Below the pieces are notes generated by a model. It had not been told where the DNA came from, did not search any database, and was given only the letters and a program-made list of their open reading frames with translations. This document shows positions 1,915 to 27,850 of a stretch of 53,620 nucleotides of DNA, in pieces. Source of the stretch: a virus; the IMG/VR virus record IMGVR_UViG_3300037851_000502, positions 1-53,620 of that record; one strand, 5' to 3'. The translations under genes and the position numbers were made by a program. Every line of letters starts with the position of its first letter. Position 1 is the stretch's first letter.

Positions 1915-2754
1915 CTAATTCTCCATTGTAAGAATATTTCTCATATCTGAAATATCCGCACCAGCGACCTTTAGATACCGCTGTGTTGTCGTAATCGATG
2001 CATGCCCCATCGTCTCCTGCAGCACGCGCAGGTTCGCGCCACGCCTGAGCATGTGGCAGGCATAGGAATGCCGCAGCCGGTGAATATTGTGCCGCCCCTG
2101 GATTCCTGCCCGTGCGCAAGCGTTCTCAAAGATTTTCTGTATGGTCCGCTTCGGATACTGCTCCTGTCCGTATTGAGGCGTAAAAACGAAATCGGCTTGA
2201 CCCTTCCCGGCAATCGTGTCTCGCAATATCGGGTGAACACAATCCGGCAGCATGACCAGACGGTCCTTTTGCCCCTTACCGTCCCGGACGTGAATCACGC
2301 CGCGCTCGAAGCGTATGTCCTGTACCCGGAGCCATTGAATATCACCAAGCCGGAGCCCTCCGTAATAGGCAACCTGCAAAAGTGCCAGGTGCTTCCGGTT
2401 GTTCTCCATTGCAAATATCTTTTTCACTTCGTCAATAGTAAGCGGTTCTGGCAGCTCCTTTTTTTCTTTCATCCTCGGAACGATGTCCAGCGGTATCGGC
2501 TGCTGCAATATGAAATTGCAGTAATACCGGACGGCGTTCGTGTGGAGGTTGATGCTCGCCGGGGCCAGCTTATTCACCCATCGAAGCGCCAGAATCCAAC
2601 CCTGCACGTACTTCACCAGGGAATCGCGCTTGTTTTTCTCGCACCAGGATATAAACCGCTCAACCGATTCGGTATAATGGCGAACCGTAACCGAAGATTT
2701 ATTCTCCACGTTCAGCCGGTTGACCAGGGCGGTGATGGACTCTGATTTTTTCAT
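1915..2754 (-). CDS. int: Tyrosine recombinase / phage integrase family (XerC/D-like, 279 aa)
   Basis: GGLRLGD (Arg I), HRLRHSYACHML (H-x-x-R), GHASITTTQRYLKV (catalytic Tyr). Confidence 0.9.
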   Translation of the reverse strand: MKKSESITALVNRLNVENKSSVTVRHYTESVERFISWCEKNKRDSLVKYVQGWILALRWVNKLAPASINLHTNAVRYYCNFILQQPIPLDIVPRMKEKKELPEPLTIDEVKKIFAMENNRKHLALLQVAYYGGLRLGDIQWLRVQDIRFERGVIHVRDGKGQKDRLVMLPDCVHPILRDTIAGKGQADFVFTPQYGQEQYPKRTIQKIFENACARAGIQGRHNIHRLRHSYACHMLRRGANLRVLQETMGHASITTTQRYLKVAGADISDMRNILTMEN

Positions 2755-2801
2755 AGTATGCCTATAATATACTACGTTTATTTTAAAATGTACATATTAT
2801 T

Positions 2802-4250
2802 TTAAAAAAGTTCGCGCCAATTGCTGACTATCACAGAATCAGCCACGGACTTCTTTTCCTTCAAGGCCTTTAGTATCTTCTCATCGACTGTCCCCCGGGA
2901 GACAAGGTCAACATATGTCACCGATTTTGTCTGCCCTATCCGATGGCAGCGGTCTTCAGACTGGAGCCGTGTTTCAAGGTTATAGTCATTCGAAAAATAA
3001 ACCACCGTCGAAGCTGCCGTGAGCGTTATCCCATACCCCCCCGTCCTTGGATTCCCGACGAAGTAATCGGCACCTCCGTCCTGAAATTTCTTTATTGCCT
3101 CCGTCCGCTCGTCCCCCGTCGTATCCCCGAAATACATCACCACCTTTTCTTTCCCGTATTTTTCAGAAAGCAATTTCGTTATCTGCGCGATATTTTTTCT
3201 ATATGTCGCCCATATTATCACCTTCCCTGGGGCTTCCTCCAATACACTTTCAAGGGCCTCAATCCGAGAACAGGGTATATCCAACAACTCCCCGTCATCC
3301 CCGTCAAGGCACCCGCAGACAAGCTGGTGAAGCCTCAAAAGCCGGACAATAACAAGCGGGGCGGTCACCATCGGGACCCCCGCCAATTCGAGCATGGCTT
3401 CATCCTTGAGCTTCTTATACATCTCTTTCTGTTCCTTGGTCATCGGAACTTCGCATATCTCATAGACCTTCGGCGGTAAATCAAGGCACTCATCTTTCTT
3501 GATAATAAAGCTGAATTTTTTCAGGATATCCGTCAACTCATCAAGATTTTTATACCGCACTACTTTTTTAAAAGTATATGCCCGGTTACCCTGAGCCATC
3601 CGCATCTCCATAAGGTCTGCGAAATATGCCCTGAAAGTATAAAAGCTGCCAAACCCCAAAATATTGTGCCCGAGAAATTGGCATTGAGAATAGATATCTA
3701 ATGGGCTATTTGTTATCGGCGAACCAGTTAAAATACGCCGGTACTTTGCAAACTTGGCGACTTGTATTGCGGCCTTTGTTCGATGGGCTTTCGGATTTTT
3801 CACGTTCGAACTTTCATCGACTACCGCCAAGCACCTCCGGCTGATGATAAATCTCTCCGCAGCTTTCTTCCCGCTCTCGTATGCCAATGCCTCGATATTC
3901 ATCACGAAAAACGTGAGACCGAATTTGCCTTGTTCCGTCATCGCAATATTCTTTTCCGTCTGGCTCTTGCTCTCATCGCCCCAGGAAAACACAAACCGCT
4001 TTATATGGTCAGGCATGTGCGCCGGGATTTCCTTTGTCTCCCAGTTCATATATGAACCCTTATTTGCGAATATCATCACCGCGTCAATTTTCCCATTGTC
4101 ATACAACCATGCCGCGGTGTCGAGAATCACTTTCGTTTTCCCAGTCCCCATCTCCATGAATAAGGCATAGGCTTCCAAGTCTTTGCTGATATCCCATGCC
4201 TTGAATTGATGGTCATACGGTCTTGTCTTGAACGGGTAGGGGTATTTCAT
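2802..4250 (-). CDS. SNF2/Rad54-like helicase
   Basis: Motif I MEMGTGKTKV, motif II AVVDESSNVKN, motif VI DRCHRIGQTKSVTYVDL. Confidence 0.9.
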   Translation of the reverse strand: MKYPYPFKTRPYDHQFKAWDISKDLEAYALFMEMGTGKTKVILDTAAWLYDNGKIDAVMIFANKGSYMNWETKEIPAHMPDHIKRFVFSWGDESKSQTEKNIAMTEQGKFGLTFFVMNIEALAYESGKKAAERFIISRRCLAVVDESSNVKNPKAHRTKAAIQVAKFAKYRRILTGSPITNSPLDIYSQCQFLGHNILGFGSFYTFRAYFADLMEMRMAQGNRAYTFKKVVRYKNLDELTDILKKFSFIIKKDECLDLPPKVYEICEVPMTKEQKEMYKKLKDEAMLELAGVPMVTAPLVIVRLLRLHQLVCGCLDGDDGELLDIPCSRIEALESVLEEAPGKVIIWATYRKNIAQITKLLSEKYGKEKVVMYFGDTTGDERTEAIKKFQDGGADYFVGNPRTGGYGITLTAASTVVYFSNDYNLETRLQSEDRCHRIGQTKSVTYVDLVSRGTVDEKILKALKEKKSVADSVIVSNWRELF

Positions 4251-4438
4251 TCTAACTCTCCATAGAAACTTTTTTGAATTATCGTACCCAAAGTTGCTTT
4301 ATAGGCCCCATTTAAAATATCACACACATCTAATACGACATCTTGTATAATATTGTTTTTAACACGAGCATATTTTTCCTGTCGTATTAAATATGCTATA
4401 ATCATCTTTTTTGACTCATCGGAGATTGGATTATTCAT
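4247..4438 (-). CDS. Hypothetical protein (63 aa)
   Basis: ORF whose stop overlaps the downstream ATG (ATGA coupling with 2802-4250). Confidence 0.5.
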   Translation of the reverse strand: MNNPISDESKKMIIAYLIRQEKYARVKNNIIQDVVLDVCDILNGAYKATLGTIIQKSFYGELE

Positions 4439-4450
4439 TATAGAATCCTT

Positions 4451-4612
4451 TTAACATAGTGAAATTTTACTTGGATGAGGGCTGCCTCGTTCCTTTCTGA
4501 CATAGTAGTATCTCTCTCCAGATTTTAATATCTCATCCCCGCTCTTTGTTACTTTGTCCAAAAGATCTCCCAGTTTCTTTTCTTCTCCCTTAGTCAATGC
4601 AGTGGCTTTCAT
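4451..4612 (-). CDS. Small hypothetical protein (53 aa, below ORF-track cutoff)
   Basis: Manual translation: MKATALTKGEEKKLGDLLDKVTKSGDEILKSGERYYYVRKERGSPHPSKISLC. It fills the gap between neighbouring genes; the SD is weak. Confidence 0.3.
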   Translation of the reverse strand: MKATALTKGEEKKLGDLLDKVTKSGDEILKSGERYYYVRKERGSPHPSKISLC

Positions 4613-4645
4613 AATGTTACCCCGGTTACTTTCTTTTTCATTTTA

Positions 4646-4849
4646 TCAGCCATTCTTTAATTTATAGTGGACGCGACGGCCCTTGATAATTCTCGGTCTC
4701 TTTACAACGACTGTCTTACCAATAAATGACTTTTTGCTTTTCGCTAATTTTACAAGGTCCTCCGCATATTGCTCCGGAATAATATACCCGCCGGTATCCG
4801 GTCGTTTATTCTTTTCCTCCCACACGTGGAACTTCGCCCCCCGATGCAA
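4646..4849 (-). CDS. Hypothetical basic protein (67 aa)
   Basis: ORF only. Confidence 0.4.
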   Translation of the reverse strand: MHRGAKFHVWEEKNKRPDTGGYIIPEQYAEDLVKLAKSKKSFIGKTVVVKRPRIIKGRRVHYKLKNG

Positions 4850-4973
4850 TAAGCAAACGGATAATTTTATTCAGGCTATTCGAAGAATTTTCAAACCAGA
4901 CTTCAAGTCTTTTCATAGCCTGTCCCTCTCTACGAATCTTTTCAACTTTCCTCTTGATGAATGTTTTTATCAT
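4806..4973 (-). CDS. Small hypothetical protein (55 aa from internal ATG)
   Basis: The ATG at 4973 is preceded by GGTGAGGGG, directly after the helicase stop. It overlaps 4646-4849 by 44 nt, so one of the two may be wrong. Confidence 0.3.
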   Translation of the reverse strand: MIKTFIKRKVEKIRREGQAMKRLEVWFENSSNSLNKIIRLLIASGGEVPRVGGKE

Positions 4974-4980
4974 CGGCCCC

Positions 4981-6450
4981 TCACCACGAATAACTGTAAG
5001 CCGTTTCCGGTTGCACAAGGCACAAGTTCTCTTTTGCCCGGGTTACACCGACATAGAAAACCCTGTGCTCTGAATCCGGGTTAATTTCAAAATTCTGCCA
5101 CGTCCTGAAACTCATATCGGACAGGACAGCCACGTTCTGTCGCTCAGCGCCCTTGACCCCGTGGATTGTCGAAAGCTGTATCCTCGCCGGGCCAGTAAGT
5201 TTCTCCTTCCTCCTCAGCAGCGATATAATAACTTCTACCGTGTCAAGGTTCATCCTATCGAGTGACTCATGCCATAACCGATTGTCAGATAGTCCGACTT
5301 CCTCCATCGTAATCTTCTTACTCTGTTTCTCCACTTGCAACCGCTCGATAATACTTTCCGTATCCGCCCTGAATTTCAGCGTATCAATCACCGAACTCAC
5401 GGCACACGGTTCACCTTTTCGTAATGCCTCCCACGTAAACGCGGCTTTCGTTTCATCCATCTTTGCCGGGTCCTCGCCGTTCCACTCATACCGATACCCG
5501 TAATCCCGGCAAACCCCTGCAGCTTGCTTCAATAGATAATCATTCCTCGCCAGGATGTACCACTCCCCAGATTCAAGCGGAAGAGAATCCACTGTCTGAT
5601 AATTCTCGACCGAACCCTTATTCTTTGTCGCCAAAAAAGACTTCGATTTTCTAACTGATATTCTATTCGAAACTTCAACCGCGTAATCATGTACCGTCCC
5701 CGAGAGTCTCCGGCCCTCATGCAGTATCTCCACAGGCCCTGTATGCTGGACAAGCCTTTCCGGGCTTGCCCCCGCCCATTCGTATATCGCTTGGTCGTCA
5801 TCCCCAGCGGCAACCGTGGAAGCCGAGCACGCGACAAGCCGGTCTATTGCCCGCCATTGCAACGGGTTTATATCTTGGGCCTCGTCTATCAAAAGCAGGT
5901 CCAATTCTGGATAATTATCCAACATATTAAACTGCTCAATTAGGTCCGTAAAATCCCGGTATCCATTGGCCATTTTATACGCAGATATCGTTTCTGACAC
6001 AAGCTCCGTTTCCCACCAGCCCAAATCCCCGTTATACGCCTCCCACGACTCACGCAGAGGCCGTAGGACCGCGCGGGAACGCTCGATAAGAGATAACGCT
6101 TGGTCTCCTTTCGGCAGATCCTGGCACGCCCTGTCTGGCCGGCGGTCCCCGGTCAATTCAATCCCGAGCACACGGCCGATGTCCCGGTATTGCTCATAGC
6201 CCATCATGCCATCCCGCTTAGCCCCAAGGAGGCTGAAAGCCAACGAATGCAGCGTCCGGAAATAAGGCAGGGCCTCCGGAGGGAGATTAAACCGCTCAGC
6301 CGCCCGGCGCTTTGCCTCGTCAGCCGCTTTCCTCGTGAAAGTCAACAGACCGACCCGCTCCGGGGACCTTCCAGCTTTTAAATGCGCCTCCACCAGCCGC
6401 AAAAGCCGCTCTGTCTTTCCTGTTCCTGGAGGGCCGAAGATTAAAAGCAT
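4981..6450 (-). CDS. UvrD/Rep-like superfamily 1 helicase
   Basis: Walker A FGPPGTGKT, LLLIDEAQD, STIHGVKGAERQNV, FYVGVTRAKENL. Confidence 0.85.
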   Translation of the reverse strand: MLLIFGPPGTGKTERLLRLVEAHLKAGRSPERVGLLTFTRKAADEAKRRAAERFNLPPEALPYFRTLHSLAFSLLGAKRDGMMGYEQYRDIGRVLGIELTGDRRPDRACQDLPKGDQALSLIERSRAVLRPLRESWEAYNGDLGWWETELVSETISAYKMANGYRDFTDLIEQFNMLDNYPELDLLLIDEAQDINPLQWRAIDRLVACSASTVAAGDDDQAIYEWAGASPERLVQHTGPVEILHEGRRLSGTVHDYAVEVSNRISVRKSKSFLATKNKGSVENYQTVDSLPLESGEWYILARNDYLLKQAAGVCRDYGYRYEWNGEDPAKMDETKAAFTWEALRKGEPCAVSSVIDTLKFRADTESIIERLQVEKQSKKITMEEVGLSDNRLWHESLDRMNLDTVEVIISLLRRKEKLTGPARIQLSTIHGVKGAERQNVAVLSDMSFRTWQNFEINPDSEHRVFYVGVTRAKENLCLVQPETAYSYSW

Positions 6451-6451
6451 A

Positions 6452-6658
6452 TTAAAATTTCCCCAGGCCTTGCTCTAATTTTTCAATTCGTATCCTTAAA
6501 TCGGAGAGCCGCTCATCAATAGTCTTCGCATTCCAAGCTGCGGCCTTTTCACGGTAATCTCTGGCCCTACATTCGGAACATTGTAGATAGCTGTGGTGTG
6601 TCACCTTTTCACACTTGCTACAATATTCTTCTGTTATTAAAGCCATAATTAACAACAC
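6452..6658 (-). CDS. Small zinc-ribbon protein
   Basis: CSKCEKVTHHSYLQCSECRA (CxxC-x10-CxxC) followed by a coiled-coil tail. GTG start at 6658 or ATG at 6646. Confidence 0.6.
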   Translation of the reverse strand: MLLIMALITEEYCSKCEKVTHHSYLQCSECRARDYREKAAAWNAKTIDERLSDLRIRIEKLEQGLGKF

Positions 6659-9185: not shown

Positions 9186-9734
9186 TTATTTGACCTTTGC
9201 CTTATTGATTATCGAAACTTGGAATAAATCGAGCGGGAAATCGGCCCCTCCTTCTACCTGTTCCCGGATAAATGCCTGTAATGTCTGCGGATGTACCTTG
9301 TCTGCATCTGAGTGGTCCACCGTATTCTCCTTTAAAAATCCGGATACAAGGTCATGGGTTTTATCCTCGCCCTTCCGGAACTTCACGACAATTTCATGAG
9401 ACACGAGGGCGGCATGACCATTCGACCGAAGCCAGGTGAAGCACGCTTCCTTGTTCTTTTCAGTAAGGTTTGAAGCGTAAATTTTTTTGACCTCGACTGT
9501 TTCCCCGGTTTCAAGGCGGATTGTAGATACCCCAGCCTCGGCCAATGCATCGGGAAGAAGTCGCAACTGCACTTCATCAAGCTGCTGTTTGAGCGAGGAC
9601 AAAACGTTCTCCGCCTTTTCGATTTTCTCTTCGATGTCAATCTGCCGCTGGGCCAGGGTACTGATTTTCTTTATGTCCTGCACCCGGACAACCTGCGCCG
9701 ATTTCTTCATGTCCTTTTTCATTTCTTCAAGCAC
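9186..9734 (-). CDS. Hypothetical coiled-coil protein
   Basis: GTG start with AAAGGAGA 6 nt upstream; N-terminal heptad-like segment. Confidence 0.6.
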   Translation of the reverse strand: MLEEMKKDMKKSAQVVRVQDIKKISTLAQRQIDIEEKIEKAENVLSSLKQQLDEVQLRLLPDALAEAGVSTIRLETGETVEVKKIYASNLTEKNKEACFTWLRSNGHAALVSHEIVVKFRKGEDKTHDLVSGFLKENTVDHSDADKVHPQTLQAFIREQVEGGADFPLDLFQVSIINKAKVK

Positions 9735-9749
9735 GGCGATTCTCCTTTC

Positions 9750-10061
9750 TTAAAAATGAAAAATATTCATCGTCAACGGGATGTAGTTCATCTCCTGTTT
9801 ATCCCATTTCAAAAGTTTCAATTCGCCATTGGTCTGTTTTGCCGCGATTGCACACGCAAGACCGATGGCTATCGGGTCCCCGATTAAAAGCAAATAATCA
9901 TCTTTCGTATATTTCGACAATTGCCGATTGAGTTCGAATGACGCGGGGCCGATGGAAAATGTAACTTGGCCCGGAGGAAGAAGCACATGGATTTCCCCGT
10001 ACTTCAATGCGGGGCTGATGTTCTTGTTCCCGACTTCCTGGGTGACATAAACTATAGGCAT
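9750..10061 (-). CDS. Hypothetical protein (103 aa)
   Basis: ORF, operon context. Confidence 0.55.
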   Translation of the reverse strand: MPIVYVTQEVGNKNISPALKYGEIHVLLPPGQVTFSIGPASFELNRQLSKYTKDDYLLLIGDPIAIGLACAIAAKQTNGELKLLKWDKQEMNYIPLTMNIFHF

Positions 10062-10429
10062 AGGGCCTCGATTACCTGGGTTAAATTGACCTTCATAGGG
10101 ATGTCGATAGACTGCATGTGAAAGTATATCTGCATTTTAGTGGCTATCCTCGGTTGCCAGATTTCAATCTTCTTTCTCGTCCTTATGAATATAAATAAAT
10201 TCCTCGCCCCATGCAGTAATCTTTTATAGAACCATACTTTTTGCGACGGCTCTAAAAGATTCTGAGGTAATTGCCGCCCTGGTAAATCGACCTTTAACTC
10301 TATCCAGATTTCAAACCCGGAGACACAGCCATTCACATCCGGCGTTCCGACGTCGACCAGATTTTCAATCCGCTGCCAATGCCCTTGGAGCTTTGGTCGA
10401 AGATAGTCCCAGAATAGTTTTTCAGTCAT
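10052..10429 (-). CDS. VRR-NUC / PD-(D/E)xK-fold nuclease
   Basis: VDVGTPDVNG ... FEIWIELK (PD...ExK arrangement). Confidence 0.7.
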   Translation of the reverse strand: MTEKLFWDYLRPKLQGHWQRIENLVDVGTPDVNGCVSGFEIWIELKVDLPGRQLPQNLLEPSQKVWFYKRLLHGARNLFIFIRTRKKIEIWQPRIATKMQIYFHMQSIDIPMKVNLTQVIEALCL

Positions 10430-19685: not shown

Positions 19686-20108
19686 ATGGCTTTATCCCCA
19701 GAAAGAGCACGAAAAATACTTACTCCATGGAAGCCGGGGCAGAGTGGAAATTTAAAAGGTCGCGGGCATGTAAAAAGTTTTAAAACATTAATCACCCCGT
19801 ACTTAAATTCACCCGCACCAGAAGCCCTCCGGAAAAAGGTAGAGAAACTTTTAGGGATTACACTTCCAGAAACTGTCACGGGACTGGAATTAATGGGCCT
19901 CCGAAATCTTTCTGATTCTATCGACTCTGGAAGAACCGATTCACAGAATATTCTTCTTGAGCGCACCGAAGGAAAAGTCACGAACCCAGTAGCATTCACC
20001 GGTACACCTCCTCCGGTGTTTAATCTTTCCGGGGACACTGCAAAAGAGGTTGTAGAAAAACTGTCCGGGTATTCAAAGACGAATGAAAACAACTCGGATA
20101 TTCAATGA
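19686..20108 (+). CDS. terS: Putative terminase small subunit
   Basis: Lies immediately upstream of and overlapping terL. The N-terminal WKPGQSGNLKGRG resembles the PGQSGNPxGRP motif of small-terminase-like phage proteins. Confidence 0.5.
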   Translation: MALSPERARKILTPWKPGQSGNLKGRGHVKSFKTLITPYLNSPAPEALRKKVEKLLGITLPETVTGLELMGLRNLSDSIDSGRTDSQNILLERTEGKVTNPVAFTGTPPPVFNLSGDTAKEVVEKLSGYSKTNENNSDIQ

Positions 20109-21249
20109 GAACACCCTCGCATTTTTTGACAAAACAAAAAGGCGGGCGCTCAACGAGGGCGGGACATCCTCTACAAAAACTTTTTCTATTCTCCAGCTTC
20201 TTGTCTTCCTCGCCGAATACGCAAAAGAACAAACGCTCATCTCCGTTGTTTCTGAATCCATGCCGCATCTCAAACGCGGTTGCATCCGTGATTTCCTGGT
20301 TATTCTCGGGGACCGGTATCAGGACGAGCTTTGGAATAAATCCGAGGCCCTGTATGAATTCCCAAATAACCTGGGGAAGATTGAATTTTTCTCAGCGGAC
20401 CAGGCGAGTAAGTTGCGCGGCGGTCGTCGGGACATTCTTTTTATCAATGAGTGCAATAATATTCCGTATGAAGCATACATGGAACTGGATATCCGAACAC
20501 GTCTTTTCACGTTTCTTGATTGGAACCCTGTCGGGGAATTTTGGGCGCATGATAAAAATCTTATCCATGATGCGGGGACTCAGTATATCCATAGCACATA
20601 TCTTGACGGAGTGGATGTTCTTCCGGCATCTGTCGTGGCGAATATCGAAGCTCAAAAAGATAAGGACCCGAATTGGTGGAATGTTTACGGTCTCGGCAAG
20701 CTGGGGAACGTCACGGGTATTGTCCATCCTTTTTTCATTCAGGAAGATGCTCTACCAGAGCATGAGCAGCAGAAAGAATTTTATGGCCTTGATTTCGGGT
20801 TTACGAATGATCCGACGTCGCTTATCCGGAACATTATCACCGGTGGGGATGAGCTTCATTCCGAGCAGCTCATATATGAGACAGGCCTTGACAATAACCA
20901 AATTGCAAAACGGATGGAGCAACTCGGGGTGGATAAATCGGCAGTTGTCTGGGGTGATTCGGCAGAACCTAAAAGTATTTCTGAAATCAGTAAGTACGGG
21001 TTTAATATCAACCCTGCCCCCAAGGGTAAAGACTCCATTACAAACGGCATACAGCTCGTGAACCAGCATCGGCAGTTCTGGACGAAGAACTCTGTTGATT
21101 GCATCAAGGAGCAGCGGAATTATCGGTATGAGGTCACGAAGGATGGAAAGTTGACCAACATACCAAGGGACCTCTTCAATCATTCGATGGATGCCCGGCG
21201 GTATGCAGTGATGGGGGAGAAACTTAAAGCAGGGATTCAAGTCTTTTAA
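20083..21249 (+). CDS. terL: Terminase large subunit (PBSX/Terminase_3-like)
   Basis: Walker A-like NEGGTSSTKT, Walker B DILFINECNN, nuclease region VVWGDSAEPKSISEISKYGF. Confidence 0.85.
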   Translation: MKTTRIFNENTLAFFDKTKRRALNEGGTSSTKTFSILQLLVFLAEYAKEQTLISVVSESMPHLKRGCIRDFLVILGDRYQDELWNKSEALYEFPNNLGKIEFFSADQASKLRGGRRDILFINECNNIPYEAYMELDIRTRLFTFLDWNPVGEFWAHDKNLIHDAGTQYIHSTYLDGVDVLPASVVANIEAQKDKDPNWWNVYGLGKLGNVTGIVHPFFIQEDALPEHEQQKEFYGLDFGFTNDPTSLIRNIITGGDELHSEQLIYETGLDNNQIAKRMEQLGVDKSAVVWGDSAEPKSISEISKYGFNINPAPKGKDSITNGIQLVNQHRQFWTKNSVDCIKEQRNYRYEVTKDGKLTNIPRDLFNHSMDARRYAVMGEKLKAGIQVF

Positions 21250-21269
21250 GGGCCGAAGGGATTTTGATA

Positions 21270-24233
21270 ATGCTTGTTGACCGTCATGGAAAAGATATCG
21301 TCGTAGAGAAAGCGGCTGTGATGCAGAACGCGGACCCGGCGCTATGGTTTTCCAGCGACTCAGGGGCGTCGGTCGCCATTGCGGATGTCGAGAAGCAACC
21401 GTATAAATTTTACTGGACGATTTACGCCTGTGCCCGCGTGATAGTTAAAAACATTTCCAGGCTTCCTCGATACCTTACCACTCTCCGCGGTGAATCTAAA
21501 AAGATTACTGAGCATGAAGTCCTGAAACTTTTGGCCAAACCGAACCCGGCGCTTACTCGTACATCTTTTTATGAGCAGATAGGGCTGAGCCTGTTGCTCC
21601 CCGCAGCGCAGTCCTATGGCAAGAACATGAAGGGCGGAGAGTGCTTTATCGTTGGTGAAATGGCTAACGGTAACAAAGCGGATTTCGCTCGGGGCGATAT
21701 CCCGCTCATGCTTTTCTGTTTCAACTCGTCCATGATGTCCCCCGCGTTTTCAGAACAGAAGAAGTGGATAGGGTGGAATTATTCTGTACCGAATACATCC
21801 TCGAAAGCAGAGTTTTACCGGACGACGGAAGTCATTCGGGTTTTCAATCTCAATCCCTATAATATTCTCGAAGGTCTGTCCCCGATTTCATCTGTGCAGT
21901 TGTCCATGGTCCGTGATATCAAGGCGGATTTATGGAATAGCAGGATGTATGACAACGATGCGATTCCCCAGGGTGTTTTGAAATCAGACCAGCAACTTAA
22001 TGAGACAGACGCGCGGGAGATTTCAACACGGTGGTATGAGAGGTATGGTGGGCCCGGGAATACTCGCCGTGTTGCCGTGCTTGGCAAGGGTGTGGAGTTT
22101 CAGAATATCTCTGTCGCGGCGAAGGACATGGAATTCTCGGAGCAAAAAGATAAAGCCATGCGCGAAATCATCAGCGTCATGGGCTTGAATAAAATTGCTC
22201 TCGGGGACTATGAACAGATAAACCGGGCGACGATTGAAATTGGTCGGTTGATGCTTTGGGAAGATACATACCTCCCGATTGACGAACAGATAATGGAGGC
22301 TTTTAATTCCCAGTGGATAAACAATATCGACCCGCGGCAGGTACTCGAACTCAAAGCCGATACTTCAGGGATATCCATCCTAAAAAAGCAGTATGATAAA
22401 CAGGTTGCAGCATCGAAGACCATGTATGATATGGGTGTTCCCGCGGCGACGGCGTTCCGGGTGAATGAGGTACCGATAACTGAGGAAGATATCGCGAATG
22501 CTCCTTGGTTACTCGAAAAGCCTGTCCAATCTTTCGCCCCTGTCCTCCCCCCGGAAGAAGAAAAACCGGAGCCGGAAAAAGCAGTGAAGTCTGGATTCGT
22601 TTATCGGTTGGACAAGGATGAGCGGGACAAGTTTTCGATGTCATATATCGAAAAGGTTCTTGACCCGGGTGAAAAGACCATGGTGTCCCGGCTCATCAAG
22701 TTCTTTATCCGTGAACGGAATGAGATGCAGGACAATGTCGACGAGTGGTTGAAGCGGAACGCCAAATCATTGACGAAGGCCCTGGTGAACCCGGCCGTAT
22801 TTCTTCTTGACATAAGCGAAGAGGCTGAGGACATGATAAAAACGGTGTATCGCCCGCAGGTTATTGAGCAGCTCAAGCGGGAAAAGGTGGAGTTAATCGA
22901 GGAACTGGGGGACGTGGTTGAATGGAATGTCACGGACCCGCTCATCAATTCGTATGTGAATGCCCGCCGGGCGGGGATGAAACGGGTAATCATGAATGAG
23001 ATGAAGACCGTTTCAGACCAGATAAGTGATGCCGTTGAAGCTGGAACTGCGAATAATGCTACGATTGCAGAGATGGCTTCGAGCATAAAGCAGGCAATCG
23101 CGGACGTCGGGGAACAATATAAGAATCAGAGTGTCACAATTGCCCGGACAGAGACAGGAATCATTTCATCGAAGCAGCGATTTGAGACATTCAAGGAAAT
23201 CGGGGCGGAGTATAAGCAGTGGATAAATGCCCATGATGAAAAGGTTCGGGATTCACATCGTGACGGGACCGGGGACGGGGGAAAGATTCTCGGGATAAAT
23301 GATATCTTCCCGAATACCGGATTGATGTACCCGCTCGAAGCAGGCGGGGCAGCGGGAGAGGTGATTAATTGTGTTCTTCCGGGGACAATAGTTTCAGGTT
23401 CATTTGTGGCCGCTCTAAAATCCTTTTATTCTGGTAAGGCCATCGAATTGACCACGAGGAACGGTAACCGGGTTTGCGTGACGGTCAATCACCCCATAAC
23501 CACAAGCAGAGGGTTTATTCCTGCTTACAGCATCAAGAAAGGCGATGACATTGTTTGCCATCGCGGAGATGTTGGCACCTTCTCTTCGAGTTGGTACGCT
23601 GATAAACAGAACGGAGAATCCCGCGTTGAGGATGTCTTCAACACGATTTCGGCGAATGGAACCTCGTGGATTAAAACACCATCCCGCTTCGACTTCGATG
23701 GCGATGGAGAATTTCTGCGACAGCAAATCGATCTTGTGGTAGGGCTTCGTTCCTTGGGAGGCAGGGGTGCTACTCTTGATTCTTCCTTGATGGGTGAAAT
23801 AGAAGCCCCGTTTGTTGAGTTCGGAAATAAGTTCAAGTTCATATCTCCCGATAGGTCCAGTATCATGGGTGCCTTGAGGCCCGGTTTCTTTGGACCCTCT
23901 TCGAGCGGACCAAGCCGCAGAGAGTTTTCTGATAATGGCATCGGGGTCCTTTCTGATGTTCTGCCATTTAAGGAATTCCGCTTCGGAGCTGCCGCGGATA
24001 TGAATATTTCTCGTTATAAGTATTCGACGGATGACGCTTCGGCTTACGAGTCTTTTCTTAGCGACCTGATTTTCACTCATCCCGGAGAGGTATTCATTGA
24101 TGACGTTATCGATGTCAGGACCTTTGATTATTCTGGACATGTTTACGACCTCCAATCGAAAGTAGGATATTTCAACAGCAATAATATACTTTCTCGCAAT
24201 TGTCGATGCACTCTTATTCTCGTATCAAAGTAA
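21270..24233 (+). CDS. Portal protein (HK97-type) fused to MuF/SPP1-gp7-like head morphogenesis domain, interrupted by an intein
   Basis: Portal-like N-terminal ~430 aa (LLAKPNPALTRTSFYEQ..., RWYERYGGPGNTRRVAVLG, MEFSEQKDKAMREIISVMGL). MuF region ARTETGIISS...WINAHDEKVRDSHRDGTG. The C-terminus ...GEVIN/CRCTL completes the NCRC motif only after intein removal. The first ATG is 21270 (track TTG at 21264). Confidence 0.85.
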   Translation: MLVDRHGKDIVVEKAAVMQNADPALWFSSDSGASVAIADVEKQPYKFYWTIYACARVIVKNISRLPRYLTTLRGESKKITEHEVLKLLAKPNPALTRTSFYEQIGLSLLLPAAQSYGKNMKGGECFIVGEMANGNKADFARGDIPLMLFCFNSSMMSPAFSEQKKWIGWNYSVPNTSSKAEFYRTTEVIRVFNLNPYNILEGLSPISSVQLSMVRDIKADLWNSRMYDNDAIPQGVLKSDQQLNETDAREISTRWYERYGGPGNTRRVAVLGKGVEFQNISVAAKDMEFSEQKDKAMREIISVMGLNKIALGDYEQINRATIEIGRLMLWEDTYLPIDEQIMEAFNSQWINNIDPRQVLELKADTSGISILKKQYDKQVAASKTMYDMGVPAATAFRVNEVPITEEDIANAPWLLEKPVQSFAPVLPPEEEKPEPEKAVKSGFVYRLDKDERDKFSMSYIEKVLDPGEKTMVSRLIKFFIRERNEMQDNVDEWLKRNAKSLTKALVNPAVFLLDISEEAEDMIKTVYRPQVIEQLKREKVELIEELGDVVEWNVTDPLINSYVNARRAGMKRVIMNEMKTVSDQISDAVEAGTANNATIAEMASSIKQAIADVGEQYKNQSVTIARTETGIISSKQRFETFKEIGAEYKQWINAHDEKVRDSHRDGTGDGGKILGINDIFPNTGLMYPLEAGGAAGEVINCVLPGTIVSGSFVAALKSFYSGKAIELTTRNGNRVCVTVNHPITTSRGFIPAYSIKKGDDIVCHRGDVGTFSSSWYADKQNGESRVEDVFNTISANGTSWIKTPSRFDFDGDGEFLRQQIDLVVGLRSLGGRGATLDSSLMGEIEAPFVEFGNKFKFISPDRSSIMGALRPGFFGPSSSGPSRREFSDNGIGVLSDVLPFKEFRFGAAADMNISRYKYSTDDASAYESFLSDLIFTHPGEVFIDDVIDVRTFDYSGHVYDLQSKVGYFNSNNILSRNCRCTLILVSK
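23370..24200 (+). mobile_element. Intein (277 aa, Hint fold) inserted in the MuF NCRC motif
   Basis: Block A CVLPGTIV (Cys1), block B VTVNHPIT (TxxH), block F FDYSGHVYDLQS, block G NNILSRN followed by +1 Cys (CRC). The flanking extein residues join to give GEVIN-CRCT. Confidence 0.8.
23415..24140 (-). CDS. Antisense ORF inside the intein: HTH plus PD-(D/E)xK (DUF559/Vsr-like) putative homing endonuclease
   Basis: 241 codons from the ATG at 24140 (246 from the TTG at 24155), with GGAGG 8 nt upstream. HTH-like segment GMSENQVAKKRLVSRSVIRRIL. Nuclease-like segments YELELISELNKRGFYFTHQ, YHKIDLLSQKFSIAIEVEAG and NRVEDILNAGFSVLFIS. It lies wholly within the intein boundaries. Confidence 0.55.
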   Translation of the reverse strand: MSRIIKGPDIDNVINEYLSGMSENQVAKKRLVSRSVIRRILITRNIHIRGSSEAEFLKWQNIRKDPDAIIRKLSAAWSARRGSKETGPQGTHDTGPIGRYELELISELNKRGFYFTHQGRIKSSTPASQGTKPYHKIDLLSQKFSIAIEVEAGWCFNPRGSIRRNRVEDILNAGFSVLFISVPTRREGANISAMANNVIAFLDAVSRNKPSACGYGVIDRHANPVTVPRGQFDGLTRIKGF

Positions 24234-25384: not shown

Positions 25385-25540
25385 ATGCCTGTAATCTGCT
25401 TAAATTGTTTTGCAGAGCGGGATGAATCGGAATTAAATCGACTGGGGATATGTGTCTATTGTCTTGAAGAAAAAGAAGAGCCGGAAAAAGAAGGGCTCGA
25501 CCTCGGATATAAAACGGATGACGATTTCAAGGAGATTTAA
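25385..25540 (+). CDS. Small zinc-ribbon protein (51 aa, below ORF-track cutoff)
   Basis: Manual translation: MPVICLNCFAERDESELNRLGICVYCLEEKEEPEKEGLDLGYKTDDDFKEI (CxxC-x16-CxxC). Confidence 0.4.
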   Translation: MPVICLNCFAERDESELNRLGICVYCLEEKEEPEKEGLDLGYKTDDDFKEI

Positions 25541-25541
25541 G

Positions 25542-26498
25542 ATGAATGAAAAAGACCGGTCAAAAGGAAAACAGGTAGGTCGTGTATTCTCCGGGTTCGC
25601 GCCATCGTCATTGGAGATGAAGCCCGACGAGTGCAAGAAACTCTGTGAAAAGCTGGGCAAAGAATATCTTCCGGGATATGAGGACCGGGTTCTTTCGTAC
25701 ATCACGACAACGGAAACCCCGGACCGGGCGGGGGACATTGTGCGGGCGGCAGGGGCGAATCTCGAAGCATACATGAAAAATCCTCAGGTGATGTATGCCC
25801 ATCAGCATGACCAGTATCCTGTCGGATGTGCATTGAAAATATGGATTGACAAAGCACAAAAGAATATCCCCGCATGGGCGATGTTCCTTGACAATCGGGT
25901 CGATTCCAGCGGGCGGTCGGACCTGGTTTACAAGTTCGCAAAATCCCGGATGATGCCATGTTGCTCAATCGGATTTATGCCTACGAAAACGAATCGGCCA
26001 TCCAGTGCGGAAGAGCGGACCAAACTCGGACTTGGTGACTGGGGCATGGAATATCTTGAATGGGACTACCTTGAATTTTCCCCGTGTTCAATACCGATGA
26101 ATCCCGATGCGATGCAGAACGCTTTGAAGTCCGCGAATTTCAAAGCTGTGTCTTTTGCTCAGGAAGATTTCGACCTCATGGTGAAGATTGCTTTCATGGA
26201 CCAGAATCTCGTGGACATTCTGGCCAACAGCTTAAAGCCTTTGAAGACGGTAAGCATACCAAATACCCAGGAAGAGGTACCTGTTGCAACCACCGAAGTG
26301 GAGGACACTGAAATGAAACAGCTTAACGAAACCATGCTCGAACTCGTGAAGACAATCAATGACCTCGTAACGGCGACGAATGCCATGTCCAAGCGTGTGG
26401 ACGATACTCTTGCGTCACTGAAATCCTCCCCCGGCACCCCCGGCGGCGCGGATGAAGGAAAAGCGCTGGAGGATATGTACTTCCGTATTGGACTGTGA
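25542..26498 (+). CDS. Prohead protease (HK97 S78-like) with C-terminal scaffold-like tail
   Basis: ITTTETPDRAGDIVRAAGANLEAYMKNPQVMYAHQ. The ATG at 25542 is preceded by AAGGAGA (track start 25452). The C-terminus is helical and acidic. Confidence 0.8.
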   Translation: MNEKDRSKGKQVGRVFSGFAPSSLEMKPDECKKLCEKLGKEYLPGYEDRVLSYITTTETPDRAGDIVRAAGANLEAYMKNPQVMYAHQHDQYPVGCALKIWIDKAQKNIPAWAMFLDNRVDSSGRSDLVYKFAKSRMMPCCSIGFMPTKTNRPSSAEERTKLGLGDWGMEYLEWDYLEFSPCSIPMNPDAMQNALKSANFKAVSFAQEDFDLMVKIAFMDQNLVDILANSLKPLKTVSIPNTQEEVPVATTEVEDTEMKQLNETMLELVKTINDLVTATNAMSKRVDDTLASLKSSPGTPGGADEGKALEDMYFRIGL

Positions 26499-26542
26499 CA
26501 GATAAATAAGAAGAGCCCAACGAAATCTGAAAGGATTTTAAA

Positions 26543-27850
26543 ATGGAACTGAATCTCGAACAACTGGAAGGCAAGCTCAAGGAATACAAGGGCTCCATCC
26601 AGACGGAAATTGACAATGTGAAGAAATCTGTGGACGGATTCGACGGCAAGGCAAAAGCCGCAGTCGAACCGCTCCAGAAAGACCTGTCGGACGTCCAGAA
26701 AACGCTGAACTCCATCCAGGAGCAGCTCAAAGTCGTGCAGGCCCAGCACGTCCCCGGCCTCAAGGACGAAGCAGCGAAAAAAGGTTTTGACCTCGGCGCT
26801 TTCGTTGGCGGAATCATGCGGGCCCGGCTCGGAATTTCCGACCCGTGGAAGTTCGCTGGACATGAAAAAGAGATGTGCGAACAGTCCATGAAGGTCCGTG
26901 ACGCCAGCAACTACGCCAGCGATGGAACTGCCGGCGGATACTTGGTCCCCGATGAGGCCCTTGCCCCCGTCGTGGACACCACCCTTGCCGAAATGCCCAT
27001 CATGGGTCTTGGCCCGACAGTCATTCGCGGTCTGGTCGGCCCCCTGCCGATTCCGCGGAAGACCGCCCGTTCGACCGGGTACATGGTCGGAGAGAATACC
27101 GCTCCCGCCCGCTCTGGTGCGACGTATGGGCTCACCACCCTTTCCCCGCACAAAATCGGAGCACAGACCGTGCAGAGCAATCGCCTGGCTTACCAGAGCC
27201 GCGGCGTGAGCGACCAGATAATCCGTCAGGATATCACGGATGCAATCGCCCTTAAGCTGGAATCCCAGCTTATCGACGGCGATGGCACCGGGTACAATCT
27301 GAAGGGTCTCGTGGCCCATACCGGTTTCACGTCAAGCGGCGTGACGGTTTCCGGGGCACGTTTCCGCGTGAAGGATGCAAGCTCGATGATTGCCGCAATC
27401 GAAGCGGCGGACGAGCTTCGCGCCGGCGGGCGGTACGGTTTCCTCATGCGCCCGCGCGTGAAGTGGGGCCTGAAGAAAGAGCGTGCGGAAATGTATTCCG
27501 GCCAGTCCGCAGACAACGGCGTTCCGATTATCGTCAATGCGCCCATCATGACTGATGACCAGCTTGCGGCCGCTCTCGGGTACAAGGTCGCGTCGACCTC
27601 TCTCATCGATTTCACATCGGCGACGCTGTCTCCGGTGTACTTCGGCAACTGGGCACAGCTCTACGTCGGTATCTGGAGGGACTTCTGGATAAAGGCGTCG
27701 GATGTGGCAGTGGACTCAAGCGGAAACAGCATGATGACCCAGGACAGCACGCTCATCGTCGCTTTCCAAGAAGTCGATTGCGCGGTTATCCGTGAAACGG
27801 CGTTCACCAAGGTCACCGGCGCGGACAGCACGGAAGCCAACTGGTCGTAA
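26543..27850 (+). CDS. Major capsid protein (HK97 fold)
   Basis: Follows the protease; N-terminal coiled-coil delta-like region; GGYLVPDE motif; 435 aa. Confidence 0.85.
   Translation: MELNLEQLEGKLKEYKGSIQTEIDNVKKSVDGFDGKAKAAVEPLQKDLSDVQKTLNSIQEQLKVVQAQHVPGLKDEAAKKGFDLGAFVGGIMRARLGISDPWKFAGHEKEMCEQSMKVRDASNYASDGTAGGYLVPDEALAPVVDTTLAEMPIMGLGPTVIRGLVGPLPIPRKTARSTGYMVGENTAPARSGATYGLTTLSPHKIGAQTVQSNRLAYQSRGVSDQIIRQDITDAIALKLESQLIDGDGTGYNLKGLVAHTGFTSSGVTVSGARFRVKDASSMIAAIEAADELRAGGRYGFLMRPRVKWGLKKERAEMYSGQSADNGVPIIVNAPIMTDDQLAAALGYKVASTSLIDFTSATLSPVYFGNWAQLYVGIWRDFWIKASDVAVDSSGNSMMTQDSTLIVAFQEVDCAVIRETAFTKVTGADSTEANWS

Follow-up and report, generated by a model that had tools for sequence, protein, structure and literature searches.

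A candidate Vsr-like homing endonuclease gene antisense to a class-1 intein in a phage portal-MuF gene

In the 53,620-nucleotide sequence of an uncultivated phage (IMG/VR virus record IMGVR_UViG_3300037851_000502, positions 1 to 53,620; hereafter the window), the gene for a portal-MuF head protein is interrupted by an intein, and the strand opposite that intein carries an open reading frame (ORF) of 241 codons lying wholly inside it. We put at roughly 80% the probability that this intein is a mobile element of two genes on opposite strands of the same DNA. The antisense product is predicted to combine an N-terminal helix-turn-helix (HTH) domain with a C-terminal Vsr/DUF559-like nuclease domain, an assignment supported by family profiles and a predicted fold. 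Comparison of related inteins shows the antisense frame to be under purifying selection at the level of the protein, as read from aligned codons.

An antisense ORF kept in all related inteins inspected

The antisense ORF extends from an ATG at 24140 to a TAG at 23417-23415 (a TTG at 24155 is an alternative start), and its codons are in perfect register with those of the intein, antisense position 3 lying opposite sense position 1 (frame -1). In this register an antisense stop can arise only from the sense codons TTA, CTA and TCA, none of which is found among the 12 Leu and 29 Ser codons of the overlapped sense region. Two estimates place the probability of having no antisense stop, given the sense amino acids and the local codon usage, at 6e-4 to 1e-5, and reciprocally, the antisense gene avoids all codons that would give sense stops (P = 8.8e-5 in the window). 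The initial annotation of this DNA had correctly placed the intein at 23370-24200, the 241-codon ORF at 24140-23415 and a GGAGG 8 nt upstream of its ATG, and had considered chance retention of the open frame unlikely. That judgement stands when the sense protein is taken into account, but the length of the ORF alone is not significant window-wide, because in-register antisense open runs of at least 240 codons (240-270) occur in several other stop-free stretches of the window. One of them gives an antisense ORF of 386 amino acids (26159-27319, minus strand), which lies over the scaffold/protease-like (25452-26498) and capsid (26543-27850) genes; its sequence is Ala/Gly/Arg-rich with no Pfam match, and it is most likely an ordinary shadow ORF.

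What raises the antisense ORF of the intein above chance is that homologous ORFs are present in all 21 related loci inspected, including an AT-rich one. A search with the sense intein yielded the first two homologues (29-34% identity), namely L001, an AT-rich phage MuF gene, and L002, an S-adenosylmethionine (SAM)-methyltransferase gene on a GC-rich contig, and the antisense products of both are homologous to that of the window (28% identity, E = 1e-20). A profile of the antisense protein led to three more viral contigs and to 84 database proteins (E of 1e-99 to 1e-15), many of them with PF18741 and HTH domains; many are named 'very-short-patch-repair endonuclease' by JGI, and most have a precomputed PF18741 match. 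In addition, 29 cultured-phage records were matched, and an exhaustive profile search returned 2,081 cluster representatives (50% identity) at E<=1e-30, counted as proteins. A scan of genome contigs with the antisense profile found nothing.

The DNA of 21 distinct loci was inspected (L001-L003, L005-L007, L010-L019, L021-L024 and the window). In 21 of 21 the nuclease gene is antisense and in register, inside a long ORF with intein blocks A, B, F and G, at GC contents from 32 to 67% (32% in the L001 intein); the N-terminal intein boundary was not placeable in L016, and block F is masked by Ns in L011. Comparison of related inteins, which the initial annotation had put forward as a check, found the antisense ORF kept and no homologue with antisense stops. 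The probability that the ORF is open by chance given the sense protein reaches its lowest value, 3.6e-12, in the AT-rich L001. The host gene is MuF-like in 20 of the 21 loci, with insertion at a ...N/C(R, K, A or E)C site (the slash marks the insertion point), and a methyltransferase gene in the remaining one.

Among these loci are the cultured phages Aaphi23, vB_Pae_BR313c and Vivi2 (L012-L014), where the kept ORF is antisense to a minor head gene. In the records of Aaphi23, Cronobacter ES2, Idiomarinaceae 1N2-2, vB_Pae_BR313c, Vibrio vB_Vp_PvVp04_M and Gordonia Vivi2 the head gene alone is annotated and the antisense gene is not. The phages with homologues include those of Pseudomonas, Aggregatibacter/Haemophilus, Cronobacter, Vibrio and Idiomarinaceae, and many homologues come from metagenomes. 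The window phage itself (~47% GC) has no DNA similarity to any phage record.

Selection on the two frames

A single codon alignment of 15 inteins served for both frames, which share their codon boundaries. Synonymous codons were resampled while the protein of one frame was held fixed, which gives the conservation expected as a by-product in the other frame (Table 2). The z-scores obtained in this way ignore shared ancestry and have a background of +2 to +9 in unselected frames, reaching about +12 at the sense-selected ends when the antisense frame is scored, so that only large contrasts are meaningful.

Read with that limit, the two ends of the intein (residues 1-60 and 246-277) are selected in the sense frame, and there the sense wobble position varies most; residues 62-83 are conserved in neither frame. 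Over residues 136-245 the antisense frame is the selected one, and sense position 1, which is the antisense wobble position, varies most, above sense position 3. The antisense similarity of the middle region exceeds the sense by-product by more than 2 standard deviations in 36 of 36 pairs. Moreover, the GC content by codon position is reversed in the middle of the L001 intein (sense GC1 0.05-0.25, GC3 0.47-0.50), as expected if the antisense strand codes there; the same profile is weakly informative in GC-rich loci and flat in the 47% GC window. The sense linker over 23775-24104 is rich in Ser, Gly, Phe, Asp and Pro, and its equivalent in AT-rich L001 is rich in Phe, Ser, Leu and Asn, so the composition follows the complement of the antisense codons and not any protein family. 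In Pfam searches, the sense translations of the window and seven homologues matched Intein_splicing at the two ends only, with no LAGLIDADG, HNH or other family, and structure prediction for the sense intein, from a two-sequence alignment, gave a pLDDT score (predicted local distance difference test) of 32.7, too shallow a basis for judging whether residues 84-125 belong to the Hint fold.

A different pattern is found opposite the nuclease core. The codon alignment indicates that both frames are constrained over residues 104-125, and probably from residue 84. Over residues 104-125 identity at the wobble positions of both frames is 0.49-0.51, where 0.30 would be expected, and the sense motif DFDGDGEF..IDLVV lies opposite the antisense YHKID138...IAIE149VE, the metal-binding core; with RVEDVF, it forms the pair of sense motifs that face the catalytic core of the nuclease. 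The overlap does not appear to be limited to a dispensable linker, since the nuclease core lies opposite constrained sense codons. Blocks A and B lie opposite the last ~44 antisense codons, whose protein sequence is poorly conserved. The initial annotation had described the sense linker as merely kept open, which fits residues ~136-245 but fails for residues 104-125 and, less strongly, 84-103. Its suggestion of looking for constraint in both frames was borne out over the same two stretches (modestly in 84-103), the remainder being selected in one frame or in neither.

Start signals of the antisense gene

The antisense Shine-Dalgarno sequence and start codon are made from the codons of intein block F (GHVYDLQ), as had been proposed: GGAGG is the complement of the Asp-Leu-Gln codons and the ATG that of CAT, the codon of His257. 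At the other end, the antisense stop is complementary to CTA, a Leu codon of the conserved sense motif ALKSFY. A GHV(Y/H) block F can be recognised in 13 loci; in 11 of them, including inteins of 57-63% GC, its His is encoded by CAT, which gives an antisense ATG. Of the other two loci, one has CAC, giving GTG, and the other has its start four codons further downstream. In most homologous loci GGAG(G) or GAGG precedes the start with the spacing fixed at 8 nt. That CAT is kept at block F even in GC-rich inteins is the mark, at a synonymous site, that a start codon in use would leave.

A terminator-like hairpin with a T-rich tail (23542-23564, minus strand) lies inside the antisense ORF, ~125 nt before its stop and at about antisense residue 195, where conservation of the protein ends. 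It may be a chance occurrence; five terminator-like sites were found, against 1.5 expected in shuffles.

A predicted HTH and Vsr/DUF559-like nuclease protein

Used alone as a query, the window antisense protein had no match in Pfam (E<=1), in PDB sequences or in a word-indexed search of 5.8 billion proteins. These single-sequence searches were blank because the window protein is too divergent; the family came to light only once homologues of the sense intein had been found at the DNA level and a profile built. Against a hidden Markov model of 68 relatives from which the window was excluded, the window protein aligns end-to-end with 124 bits (E = 2.4e-40). When six relatives were searched against Pfam, REase_MTES_1575 (PF18741) was matched by four (best 3.4e-8) and DUF559 (PF04480) by three, and several relatives match HTH_23, HTH_7 and HTH_38. 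In a search of PDB with the 69-sequence profile, the N-terminal part is related to the tandem HTH of 2lvs (4e-8) and to the gamma-delta resolvase HTH (0.003), and the nuclease part to 3hrl (DUF559, 2.4e-6), to 3r3p (the I-Bth0305I catalytic domain, 7.6e-4) and, weakly, to 1cw0 (Vsr, 0.051).

An AlphaFold model built from a family alignment of database proteins has a pLDDT of 84.9 and a predicted template modelling (pTM) score of 0.60. It consists of a three-helix HTH, two long helices and an alpha-beta-beta-beta-alpha-beta core, followed by a C-terminal tail of low pLDDT. Comparison of the model with the predicted viral structures of BFVD by Foldseek gave 28 matches at E<=1e-3, with values as low as 2e-10, and the names among these matches include DUF559, Vsr, 'DNA mismatch endonuclease' and 'homing endonuclease'. 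These results agree with the domain assignment in the initial annotation, and its proposed search of both translations against families gave PF18741/DUF559 matches for the antisense relatives and no endonuclease family for the sense linker.

Four members of the family (L005 2836-3747, L010 4001-4903, L015 3001-4053 and L016 3001-4059) are 300-352 amino acids long and have the N-terminal HTH duplicated or triplicated; their inteins are correspondingly longer, at 320-372 codons.

Catalytic residues

Across the 69 members of the family, E101, Q118, Y135, N136, D138, E149, G153, W154, H155, R166 and G174 are invariant or near-invariant, and the overall pattern is E...Q...YNxD...AVEIxGGxWH...R...G(W). 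The window protein retains E101, Q118, D138, E149, G153, W154, R166 and G174. D138 and E149, at the positions of Vsr D51 and Vsr F62, are invariant in 69 of 69 sequences, the window included. The motifs singled out in the initial annotation as nuclease-like turn out to contain the family-conserved E101, Q118, D138, E149, R166 and G174. The His of the GGxWH motif is at the position of the general-base His, H69 in Vsr and H213 in I-Bth0305I (PMC3239194). For the second catalytic Asp (Vsr D97; I-Bth0305I D222), no invariant Asp is found downstream of the His column, the YIL(D/N) position being D in 36 and N in 30 sequences.

Proposed mechanism and alternative readings

It is possible to outline how such an element would work. 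On the sense strand, a splicing (Hint) domain at both ends would flank a featureless linker of ~110 residues, which would need only stop-free reading for the head protein to be made and spliced. The antisense strand would give the 241-residue protein, its start codon and ribosome-binding site being the complements of His-Val-Tyr-Asp-Leu-Gln codons. By analogy with Vsr-like (EDxHD) homing endonucleases, the nuclease would act during co-infection, recognising and cutting MuF alleles without the intein around ...GAGGTGATTAAT/TGTCGATGCACT..., and repair would then copy the intein, with its internal nuclease gene, into the cut allele. Antisense transcription and translation, nuclease activity, the target site and homing are inferred here. 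Indirect support for homing may be seen in the presence of the intein-endonuclease pair in a second host protein, the methyltransferase of L002, and in phages of several bacterial phyla. In L002 the intein lies in a SAM-dependent methyltransferase gene (2493-3923, plus strand) beside transketolase genes, with the antisense ORF at 3030-3722 (minus strand) and an insertion site of GHVN/C...SN/CYSG, an apparent switch of host protein from MuF.

Several findings, beside the z-score background described above, weigh against the two-gene mobile element. The window protein has Cys155 where 65 of 69 relatives have the His of GGxWH, and it deviates further at Y135H, N136K, F151E, G152A, Y169D, W175F and H77W and by an 11-residue insertion. 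It has no Pfam or PDB match of its own, and in PDB Foldseek gave only weak restriction-enzyme-like matches (best E = 0.019). A scan of the window for promoters and terminators gave weak consensus matches and no convincing antisense promoter; the sole minus-strand match, a weak sigma-70-like TTGATA-18-GACAAT (9/12) at 24228-24199, is ~60 nt upstream of the antisense ATG, in C-extein codons and the host stop codon. Finally, searches by phage tblastn and megablast and of viral and metagenome contigs for an intein-less allele of a close relative returned remote relatives only, so recent mobility of the window copy cannot be shown.

Since the conserved catalytic His is replaced by Cys155, the activity of the window copy is uncertain; the copy may be weakly active, use a different chemistry or be inactive. 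The alternative that survives best, although we think it unlikely, is that the antisense gene is real and was once a homing endonuclease gene, but that the window copy, and perhaps its whole subclade (the window and L001-L003), has lost nuclease activity and is either a slowly decaying remnant or a repurposed DNA-binding protein, such as a regulator or accessory factor serving the intein or the phage. In line with this, the window protein has changes at six near-invariant positions besides Cys155, the insertion and no Pfam nuclease match; GGxWH is missing from its nearest relatives L001, L002 and L003 as well as from L013 and L017; and the HTH is the best-conserved part within the subclade. 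Against it, the metal-binding D138 and the invariant E149, E101, Q118 and R166 are kept, and the nuclease alpha1-beta1 and core regions of the subclade remain above by-product (z +3.4 to +6.4; +3.4 to +12.6 when the HTH is included). Moreover, a decaying pseudogene is not expected to stay open across a divergence to ~28% identity that includes an AT-rich genome. The antisense gene is maintained, as judged by this conservation within the subclade and by ORFs intact at ~28% identity. The initial annotation's homing endonuclease is accordingly a genuine antisense protein-coding gene, but an active enzyme is not secure, given Cys155 and the other changed positions.

Far less probable is a reading in which the in-frame sense linker is itself the endonuclease, or some other functional domain, with the antisense ORF only incidental. 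No stop interrupts the sense frame, and RVEDVF and DFDGDGEF..IDLVV (residues 84-125) are conserved beyond by-product; yet Pfam finds only Intein_splicing at the ends of the window intein and its seven homologues, the composition of the linker is typical of the complement of a real gene, and a preprint on related inteins found no recognisable structure there (10.1101/2025.01.02.630785). An in-frame sense endonuclease was rejected on the grounds of no family match and background conservation in residues 136-245. Least probable of all is a chance shadow ORF, which would need only a sense gene without TTA, CTA or TCA and has parallels in the other long in-register runs of the window and in the 386-amino-acid ORF over the capsid gene, but which is effectively refuted by the comparative and resampling evidence, namely the homologous ORF in 21 of 21 loci at 32-67% GC, antisense similarity that far exceeds the sense by-product in each of 36 pairs, the relatives' significant nuclease and HTH matches with a confident fold prediction, and the synonymous CAT kept at the start site in GC-rich genomes.

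Comparison with known systems

The architecture in which an endonuclease is encoded antisense within an intein was already described in 2025, and the window element is a new, divergent member rather than a new kind of element. In a survey of actinobacteriophage inteins, Gosselin, Arsenault and Gogarten found LAGLIDADG and VSR-like endonucleases on the antisense strand, reported that MuF-like minor capsid inteins carried only non-canonical endonucleases, and linked the VSR-like endonuclease to 3R3P by HHpred (bioRxiv 10.1101/2025.01.02.630785, version 2025-10-20). In the supplementary table of the preprint, gp14 of Gordonia phage Vivi2 is entered as 'minor capsid, MuF-like, class 1, VSR -1 ORF', with the intein at 9211-10158 and the site ...HEVIN/CRCT.... 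By tblastn, the window protein matches the Vivi2 gp14 region at 9331-9933 (27% identity, 87% coverage, E = 6e-5). Since this match lies inside the reported intein and the target site is the same, the window element is a distant homologue of the kind described. Earlier antisense LAGLIDADG inteins, as cited in the preprint, are those of Gorbalenya 1998 and Gogarten et al. 2002. The initial annotation knew of no contiguous intein that carries its endonuclease on the other strand, a view that these published cases overturn.

Like the 'VSR -1 ORF' inteins, the window element is a contiguous class-1 intein with an antisense Vsr-like ORF in frame -1, in the same MuF host family (IPR006528) and at the same site (HEVIN/CRCT in Vivi2, GEVIN/CRCT in the window), and its family shares the remote link to 3R3P (I-Bth0305I). 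It differs from the actinophage examples in belonging to an uncultivated phage of ~47% GC with MuF fused to the portal, in its divergent endonuclease without the GGxWH His, and in an ORF that overlaps blocks B and F with its catalytic core opposite constrained sense codons. Moreover, the preprint concerns actinophages only, whereas homologues in the present study come from further bacterial phages and from metagenomes. The antisense LAGLIDADG inteins Ssp DnaX and Cau SpoVR-like are likewise contiguous inteins with an endonuclease on the complementary strand, but they have the LAGLIDADG fold and are found in other host genes and in cellular genomes.

In 'fractured genes', Vsr-like endonuclease genes stand free between the halves of a split intein (Dassa et al. 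2009, PMC2677866), and a group I intron in recA encodes I-Bth0305I (Taylor et al. 2011, PMC3239194). These EDxHD endonucleases have a Vsr-type core, which is predicted for the window protein too, and share with it a metal-binding Asp and an extra Glu (D138 and E149 in the window), an N-terminal DNA-binding region followed by a C-terminal nuclease, and an association with inteins in phage genes. Unlike the window gene, they are encoded on the same strand, either in an intron loop or between intein halves that are translated separately, with coding overlaps of only 6-69 bp, and they have NUMOD repeats where the window family has an HTH (HTH_23, HTH_7 and HTH_38, and resolvase-type in PDB). The sequence link between the two is weak (3r3p E = 7.6e-4), and the window copy is without the motif His. 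The best profile matches for the relatives are DUF559 and REase_MTES_1575 (PF04480 and PF18741; PF18741 3.4e-8, 3hrl 2.4e-6), whose members are ordinary free-standing genes, and the window protein falls under the Pfam threshold for these families.

Beyond what the preprint reports, sequence comparison shows that the lineage is not confined to actinophages and is abundant in metagenomes, that the nuclease gene is antisense inside the intein in every locus examined, and that block F also supplies the ribosome-binding site and start codon of the antisense gene. A broader reading, to which we give somewhat less than even odds, joins these observations: an HTH and Vsr-like clade would be obligately antisense within one intein lineage, with the nuclease core (YNxD...AVE...) and part of the splicing fold (IEDV...DxHGDGxF..IDVV) both selected on the same 22 to ~40 codons. 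If this is correct, the clade spans phages of Proteobacteria, Actinobacteria and uncultivated hosts, with ~2,000 clusters at 50% identity in metagenomes, and would offer a rare instance in which two functional protein cores lie base-for-base antisense to each other; the His-less subclade of the window would then be a nuclease of altered chemistry or a repurposed DNA-binding protein.

In prokaryotes and phages, few long antisense overlapping genes are selected in both frames, and reports of them are often contested. The window element offers a clean, comparatively validated case of antisense overlapping genes, and it bears on how inteins acquire endonucleases. Because standard annotation misses such genes, the inteins that contain them are mistaken for ones with a degenerate endonuclease domain. 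What the window adds is breadth of hosts, a map of the selected frame by zone, and the logic of the start codon and Shine-Dalgarno sequence.

The host gene and its intein

The host gene is part of a head module, between the large terminase gene (20083-21249) and the HK97-type capsid gene (26543-27850). The intein begins with Cys1 (TGT at 23370), has T38-V-N-H41 in block B and GHVYDLQ in block F, and ends with Asn277 (AAT at 24198-24200), followed by the +1 Cys at 24201. These class-1 hallmarks (Cys1, block B, terminal Asn and +1 Cys) are also found in 15 aligned homologues, and the intein boundaries are conserved in 15 loci. The insertion site, ...GEVIN/CRCT..., is within the MuF HxxCRC motif, and excision of the intein rejoins the MuF ...xxN-CRC motif at a site common to 20 MuF-like loci and Vivi2. 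The window intein matches Pfam Intein_splicing (PF14890) with E = 3.2e-7 and 30.7 bits, under the gathering cutoff of 35.8, and the homologous inteins of L001 (37.2 bits) and L007 (36.9 bits) are above it. The C-terminal splicing region shares its DNA with the first ~12 antisense codons, the antisense Shine-Dalgarno sequence and the start codon.

Table 1. Coordinates in the window of the host gene, the intein and the antisense gene.
Feature	Position	Strand	Basis
Portal-MuF fusion host gene, 989 aa, intein-interrupted	21264..24233	+	Pfam Phage_portal 3e-43, Phage_Mu_F 4e-8
Class-1 intein, 277 codons, near the C-terminus of the host protein	23370..24200	+	Splicing blocks and Pfam Intein_splicing
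N-terminal splicing region, intein residues 1-60, sense-selected	23370..23549	+	Sense BLOSUM 1.5-1.8 vs by-product 0.06-0.10
C-terminal splicing region, blocks F and G, residues 246-277, sense-selected	24105..24200	+	Resampling
Antisense gene, 241 aa, predicted HTH and Vsr/DUF559-like nuclease, candidate homing endonuclease	23415..24140	-	ORF and family profile
Shine-Dalgarno GGAGG	24149..24153	-	8 nt upstream of antisense ATG
Predicted HTH DNA-binding domain, antisense residues ~10-43	24012..24113	-	Helices 10-18, 23-30 and 34-43, pLDDT 96-97
Predicted Vsr/DUF559-like nuclease domain, antisense residues ~96-207	23520..23855	-	Predicted core, family invariants, profile matches
Key nuclease residues E101; D138; E149; Cys155	23838-23840; 23727-23729; 23694-23696; 23676-23678	-	
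Probable dual-constraint zone, intein residues 84-125, antisense residues 133-174	23619..23744	both	Resampling
Antisense-only selected zone, intein residues 136-245	23775..24104	-	Resampling

Table 2. Conservation of the two frames by intein zone (BLOSUM, observed vs by-product).
Intein residues	Sense	Sense z	Antisense	Antisense z	Frame selected
1-60	1.5-1.8 vs ~0.1	+41 to +44	0.45-0.52 vs 0.04-0.08	+11 to +12	Sense
84-103	0.72-0.78 vs 0.18-0.21	~+9	0.96-1.17 vs ~0	~+15	Both, modestly
104-125	1.7-1.9 vs 0.55-0.65	+18 to +20	2.05-2.25 vs 0.65-0.78	+25 to +26	Both constrained
136-245	At by-product level	+3 to +9	0.8-1.6 vs ~0	+18 to +44	Antisense
246-277	1.67-1.86 vs 0.31-0.41	+25 to +30	0.51-0.58 vs 0.20-0.28	+6 to +8	Sense

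The host protein of the window intein, in which portal and MuF-like minor head protein are fused (21264-23369, plus strand), has a counterpart in L003, where a portal-MuF fusion of 1242 amino acids is encoded at 2812-6540 (minus strand); in most relatives the two are adjacent separate genes. In two further contigs (L008 674-1258 and L009 129-713), a free-standing HNH_3 endonuclease gene of 194 amino acids lies on the opposite strand between two structural genes. This gene is missing from the otherwise near-identical L007, which makes one phage lineage polymorphic for the presence of a second mobile endonuclease.

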